This document shows positions 33,733 through 33,798 of a stretch of DNA of 39,345 nt, one piece after another. Under the pieces are notes generated by a model. It was not told where the DNA came from, made no database searches, and saw only the letters and a list, made by a program, of their open reading frames with translations. Source of the stretch: a virus; UHGV virus genome UHGV-1828728; one strand, written 5' to 3'. The first letter of the stretch is position 1, and every line of letters begins with the position of its first letter. A program made the position numbers and the translations under genes.

Positions 33733-33798
33733 ATTGCTCTAATAAAAAACGTGATGAGTGTACATCACGTTTTAAAAATATGGAATTATTAGAGCAAT
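33733..33798. promoter_or_regulatory. pair of inverted C1 operator-like sites flanking a 20-bp palindrome
   Basis: ATTGCTCTAATAAAAAA (33733-33749, +) and reverse complement ATTGCTCTAATAATTCC (33782-33798) flank CGTGATG-AGTGTA-CATCACG (33750-33769). Confidence 0.5.

Follow-up and report, generated by a model that had tools for sequence, protein, structure and literature searches.

The window, by which we mean the whole analyzed stretch of 39,345 nt of the virus genome UHGV-1828728, is a P1-type phage-plasmid, and the region considered here is 99% identical to P1, P7, RCS47, and SJ46. On the minus strand of this region, pmgQ, which is the final gene of the upstream C1-controlled unit pmgN-pmgO-pmgP-ppp-pmgQ, is followed by pmgR, pmgS, and pap. 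The 81-bp intergenic region between pmgQ and pmgR contains a composite site: two C1 operators in opposite orientation, a predicted promoter, and a stem-loop located between the operators. Intergenic regions with at least 90% identity to it were found in about 680 P1-type plasmid records. The features of the window relevant to this site are as follows:

17867-18718, plus strand: c1 repressor gene; the 283 aa product is identical to P1 C1.100 at 282/283 positions
31657-32163, minus strand: pap, HAD phosphatase gene (Pfam HAD_PNKP, 43.6 bits versus a cut-off of 27.6)
32188-32216, minus strand: pmgS-pap hairpin, AAUGCUGGUGG-AGUGCGC-CCACCAGCAUU and then U5; -17.6 kcal/mol
32236-33498, minus strand: pmgS, 420 aa
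33500-33718, minus strand: pmgR, 72 aa, the first gene downstream of the composite site
33733-33749, plus strand: C1 operator OpmgRb (former Op86b), ATTGCTCTAATAAAAAA
33744-33749, minus strand: T6 run (U-tract), directly 3' of the core stem, positions 12-17 of Op86b
33746-33773, minus strand: stem-loop with an 11-bp stem, including the AAAA/UUUU extension
33769-33763 and 33756-33750, minus strand: core stem CGUGAUG/CAUCACG, with the loop UACACU at 33762-33757
33769-33797, minus strand: PpmgR, predicted sigma-70 promoter annotated in the P1 record, with the -35 element TTGCTC (33797-33792), a 17-nt spacer, and the -10 element TAAAAC (33774-33769)
33782-33798, minus strand: C1 operator OpmgRa (former Op86a), ATTGCTCTAATAATTCC; plus-strand reading GGAATTATTAGAGCAAT
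33800-34501, minus strand: pmgQ, 233 aa, with the stop codon at 33802-33800

The initial annotation described two operator-like cores in opposite orientation, located upstream of genes encoding a 72-aa protein, a 420-aa protein, and a HAD phosphatase, and this description is correct; the genes are pmgR, pmgS, and pap. Both sites are known C1 operators, with binding assigned to them by database annotation. They coincide in AF234172.1, the record of P1, with OpmgRb and OpmgRa, protein_bind features labelled "phage repressor C1", and this record indicates that OpmgRa "controls expression of pmgR and pmgS". In the P7 record AF503408.1, Op(sht[b]) and Op(sht[a]) coincide with Op86b and Op86a, respectively. 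Position, sequence, and flanking genes of OpmgRa/OpmgRb and PpmgR are all shared between P1/P7 and the window. Op86a begins 1 nt past the pmgQ stop codon, while Op86b, inverted relative to it, has the hairpin on one side and the pmgR ribosome-binding site on the other. A repeat search returned the operator cores as an inverted repeat whose arms of 13 nt are fully complementary and separated by 40 nt. Both operators match the asymmetric 17-bp C1 operator consensus ATTGCTCTAATAAATTT (PMC8546580, where the number of P1 operators is given as 22) at 14/17 positions, the first 13 of them exactly. The core ATTGCTCTAATAA, with no more than two mismatches allowed, occurs 11 times in the window versus 1.25 +/- 1.1 times in shuffled sequences, and the count of 11 was reached in 0/100 shuffles. 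Five of the cores in the window are exact, and Op86a and Op86b account for two of these. Two further exact cores, at 17213-17225 (minus strand) and 17292-17304 (plus strand), lie between loxP (CTTCGTATAGCATACATTATACGAAG, 17136-17161) and c1, at a location which corresponds to the P1 region of the Oc1 operators.

The window itself encodes C1, and by annotation the product of this c1 gene is the protein that binds Op86a and Op86b. Its sole difference from P1 C1.100 is at residue 193, which is G here and C in c1.100; since no other residue differs, the window probably carries the wild-type allele.

The term bipartite operator, which had been suggested initially, does not strictly fit the pair in the sense used for P1. 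The two 17-bp sites are 32 bp apart (49 bp from centre to centre, 66 bp for the whole composite site), and AF234172.1 labels each of them "monovalent", keeping "bivalent" for overlapping pairs such as Oc1ab. The bivalent operators of P1 (Oc1ab, former Op99a/b) resemble the present site in having two inverted C1 sites at one promoter; however, the 17-mers of Oc1ab overlap and span only 28 bp. Nothing relevant on this operator pair or on PpmgR was found in the literature searched.

The sequence CGTGATG-AGTGTA-CATCACG is located between the two operators, at 33750-33769. It had been described as a 20-bp palindrome bracketed by the operators. It is indeed an inverted repeat and does lie between them; however, the repeat is interrupted (7+6+7), its 6-nt centre is not self-complementary, and its placement is asymmetric, as the hairpin adjoins Op86b and is 12 nt from Op86a. 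The full inverted repeat has perfect 11-nt arms, AAAACGTGATG and CATCACGTTTT (33746-33756 and 33763-33773), with 6 nt between them. Its gene-strand sequence is AAAA-CGUGAUG-UACACU-CAUCACG-UUUUUU, and the intergenic region as a whole, from the pmgQ stop codon to the pmgR start codon, reads TAA-T-[ATTGCTCTAATAATTCC]-ATATTTTT-AAAA-CGTGATG-TACACT-CATCACG-[TTTTTTATTAGAGCAAT]-CCAAAAGGTGCACT-ATG. The core stem lies on the strand of pmgQ, beginning 30 nt past the stop codon of that gene, and is directly followed by UUUUUUAUU. The T-run is the A-rich tail of Op86b, which reads TTTTTT on the gene strand. Among ten extracted P1 operators, Op86b alone has AAA at positions 15-17, and it is because of these bases that the T6 run exists.

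The hairpin has a folding energy of -13.4 kcal/mol versus -3.2 +/- 1.75 kcal/mol in shuffled sequences (z = -5.8), and 0/200 shuffles folded as well. The core stem alone, with 7 bp, four of them G-C pairs, and a 6-nt loop, gives -8.5 kcal/mol. A custom scan for hairpins followed by T-runs, in which shorter stems were allowed, listed the hairpin, whereas both the hairpin and PpmgR were absent from the output of the built-in promoter and terminator scan. The hairpin was likely missed there because its A-U stem extension leaves only four T in the tail window. An Rfam search of 33500-34000 gave no match at E <= 1.

A G-C stem-loop, a U-tract at its 3' side, a position at the 3' end of a transcription unit, and pairing that is kept in relatives are all found here, and no other gene lies between pmgQ and the next annotated operator and promoter. 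The stem-loop, U-run, A-run, and proximity to a stop codon are shared with intrinsic terminators of E. coli and its phages, including "bidirectional" terminators with an A-tract and a U-tract. Unlike these, the hairpin of the window is nested between repressor sites and shares its U-tract with an operator and its A-tract with a predicted -10 element, and termination is a prediction in this case. The P1 and P7 records annotate the operators and the predicted promoter only and contain no hairpin feature. It is probable, although far from certain, that the Op86a/Op86b pair controls pmgR-pmgS and that the palindrome between the operators is the intrinsic terminator hairpin of the pmgN-pmgQ operon. 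The identity of the operators with Op86a and Op86b, the gene context, the fold, and the compensatory changes in relatives come directly from the sequence comparisons and folding; the termination, its efficiency, and the geometry of the start site are inferred from them.

The predicted promoter is interwoven with both elements. Positions 2-7 of Op86a (TTGCTC) are the predicted -35 element, and the -10 element extends from the T that precedes the A-tract, through this tract, to the first base of the stem, which would place +1 at about 33762, in the loop of the hairpin. PpmgR matches the consensus at 8/12 positions. In several relatives, the -10 element reads TAAAGC, TGAAAC, or TGAAGC; in these variants, G·U pairs with the U-tract are preserved, but the -10 hexamer would be expected to suffer. 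The assignment of PpmgR in the P1 record may therefore be imperfect. Inspection by eye of the 81 bp between pmgQ and pmgR revealed no better sigma-70 promoter. As pmgR has been reported to be essential (PMC10695390) and PpmgR is a poor promoter, a fully efficient terminator just ahead of this gene would be hard to explain; either the terminator leaks or the promoter has been assigned imperfectly. The literature searched yielded no start-site or 3'-end data for P1, and the P1 RNA-seq in PMC8201110 is at the gene level only.

Relatives were collected by PmgS searches and by scans for the operator pair in IMG/VR and metagenomes. Beyond the P1 type, three or four lineages possess both operator cores, the 40-nt spacing, and the T6 run. 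Their hairpins read on the gene strand as follows:

Salmonella plasmids (L006-L008): AAAA-CAUGGUG-UAUCAU-CACCAUG-U6
IMG/VR contig (L062): hairpin as in the Salmonella plasmids
Cronobacter phage JK004 (L003): CAUGGUG...CGCCAUG
Metagenome contig (L131): CAUGGUG...CGCCAUG

When 18 distinct variants were aligned, 96.5% of the cells were paired, versus 38-72% with the partners slid. At two pairs, both partners have changed (G-C to A-U and A-U to G-C), and the T6 run is invariant in all 18 variants. All changes but one in the A-tract are A to G, which preserves G·U pairing with the U-tract. In P1-type plasmids that diverge by 5-6% over 171 nt, the 28-nt hairpin has 0-1 change, with G·U kept. The covariation comes from only three to four independent lineages, and the two compensatory pairs may represent a single divergence event between two lineages. 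A scan of genome contigs for diverged relatives returned two E. coli-type loci only, and pattern scans of viral and metagenome sequences returned only one new lineage.

The initial annotation took the palindrome to suggest a second dimeric regulator at the same site as C1. In agreement with this, the inverted repeat between the operators is perfect over 7 bp, or over 11 bp if the A/T extension is included, and its inverted symmetry is kept in relatives, as a dimer site requires; the covariation alone would be compatible with such a site, since a palindromic protein-binding site would also keep its symmetry. However, when the Salmonella/Cronobacter type is compared with the P1 type, 2/7 positions of the half-site and 3/6 positions of the centre differ, whereas no change is seen in the operators on either side, so that it is the pairing and not the half-site that is conserved. 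JK004 and L131 have even lost the symmetry of the DNA (CATGGTG/CGCCATG) and retain a U·G pair in the RNA, on the gene strand only. In addition, the palindrome is centred at 33759.5 and the operator pair at 33765.5, a displacement of 6 bp; no conserved second copy of the palindrome occurs in the window; a distant Pantoea plasmid keeps the inverted operator pair without a palindrome; and the U6 that follows the palindrome on the gene strand, past a stop codon, gives it the look of a terminator. We consider a second regulator at this site highly improbable. It is nearly as hard to accept that the palindrome has no function of its own, being a spacer whose symmetry is left over from, for example, an old event that duplicated an operator with its flank in inverted orientation. 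Such an origin would agree with the shallow comparison, since among 112 close, nearly identical IMG/VR copies there is no excess conservation of the stem (6/14 variable columns, 10 minor-allele sequences) over the neighbouring spacer (4/12 variable columns, 5 minor-allele sequences). Singleton variants in the alignment of 18 break a stem pair about as often as they keep one, and among transitions in the core stem, six cells keep a wobble versus three that break the pair, too few to favour either side. The Pantoea relative, with its operator pair but no hairpin, also fits a palindrome without a function. On the other hand, two double-sided pair changes and a wobble across three or four lineages in which loops and flanks have diverged, the invariant T6 run at a fixed spacing of 40 nt, the nearly unchanged hairpin in the more diverged P1-type copies, and the z-score of the fold all argue against it, and we regard this explanation as improbable.

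Another reading assigns to the hairpin a role as a leaky attenuator, a 3'-end stabiliser, or a processing site, which would set the ratio of pmgQ to pmgR-pmgS; in the processing variant, the operators would pair in the read-through RNA to form a long interrupted duplex, a possible substrate of RNase III. This would reconcile the reported essentiality of pmgR with the 8/12 match of PpmgR and with the TGAAAC and TGAAGC hexamers of some relatives, and it agrees with the only moderate strength of the stem. For the read-through RNA of 131 nt, folding predicts a structure of -37.6 kcal/mol (z = -4.9) in which the operator arms pair around the hairpin; however, two inverted operators will pair in this way automatically, whether or not the pairing has a function. 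Moreover, this reading largely overlaps with that of an intrinsic terminator, the efficiency being the sole difference between them. We consider it unlikely in its own right.

Several candidates of other kinds were tried and rejected. The site does not match the late-promoter (Lpa) -22 boxes of P1, AAGTTACTT and ATGTGACTT. A CRP site has the spacing TGTGA-N6-TCACA, and GTGA-N10-TCAC, as found here, is spaced wrongly. A possible second copy of the palindrome with two mismatches, located inside pmgS (33365-33386, minus strand), has lost the T-run and the pairing in relatives. This near match (33365-33384) forms a terminator-like hairpin followed by T7 and codes for RFFD; since the hairpin is lost in JK004 and in the Salmonella plasmids, it probably arose by chance in a coding sequence.

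The Pantoea plasmid NZ_CP034366.1, a very distant P1-like element whose PmgS is 24% identical, has the same junction between pmgQ-like and pmgR/S-like genes. A dispersed asymmetric operator-like motif, AAGATACTAAAATAT, different from that of P1, has 13 matches in this plasmid with no more than three mismatches, versus 2.75 expected, and several copies lie just upstream of annotated genes. The only inverted pair among these matches is located before the pmgR/pmgS homologues (60293-60340; L134/L135); its two convergent copies span 48 bp, compared with 66 bp in the window, and neither a hairpin nor a T-run lies between them. As the inverted pair is found at the same junction without the hairpin, the convergent operator pair seems, from these sequences, to be the conserved design, and the hairpin to be an addition of the clade that includes P1 and the Salmonella and Cronobacter elements. 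The recurrence of the pair in so distant a plasmid hints that the pair itself matters.

The boundary between pmgS and pap is organized similarly. The hairpin listed above is found after the stop codon of pmgS and before the start of pap, is stronger than the hairpin between pmgQ and pmgR, is kept with an altered stem in JK004, and is likewise not annotated in the P1 record. As this boundary also has a hairpin and a T-run, punctuation by putative terminators appears to be usual in this block. Since a terminator-like hairpin separates pap from pmgS, pap need not share a transcript with pmgR-pmgS, and the sequence suggests that it is not simply co-transcribed with them. In the Salmonella plasmid NZ_CP077703.1 (L006, 2800-2850), as in the Salmonella relatives generally, pmgS is followed by a T-run and then directly by another P1-type operator, ATTGCTCTAATAAATAT. 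The Salmonella relatives contain a different gene in place of pap, so the boundary of this module is variable. Further downstream, a stretch of about 5 kb (25758-30767) has no counterpart in P1 78850-94800. This stretch contains small minus-strand ORFs, including those for a DUF551 protein and an Ead/Ea22-like protein, and it splits pmgT, which encodes 309 aa in P1 and is represented in the window by a 242-aa ORF at 30734-31462.

We propose that in the prophage, one C1 monomer would bind each of the asymmetric 17-bp sites, and pmgR-pmgS would be silenced. C1 on Op86a would cover the -35 element of the weak predicted PpmgR, and C1 on Op86b would be positioned between the pmgR ribosome-binding site and the predicted start site, close to the latter. 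In lytic growth, transcripts arriving from the pmgN-ppp-pmgQ operon would stop at the hairpin and its U6, leaving pmgR-pmgS as a separate transcription unit. The A-rich tail of Op86b would encode the U-tract, so that one stretch would serve two roles. If the annotated -10 element is real, transcripts from PpmgR would begin in the loop, lacking the 5' arm of the stem, and so would escape this terminator. A more elaborate arrangement is conceivable but very doubtful: with the U-tract inside Op86b and the A-tract inside the -10 element, C1 occupancy, promoter use, and termination of upstream transcripts would be mechanically coupled, and the site would act as a repressor-gated insulator between two lytic operons, or else the operator-paired read-through RNA would serve as a processing signal.

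The records of P1 and P7 have listed the operator pair for about two decades. The pair is thus already known, and the terminator reading is a modest refinement of the annotation. It is unsurprising and adds little beyond that annotation, but it could be useful for P1 engineering or for the interpretation of P1 transcriptomes. If the hairpin is indeed an intrinsic terminator, pmgR-pmgS would form a separate C1-controlled unit, and the atypical A-rich tail of Op86b would be explained.
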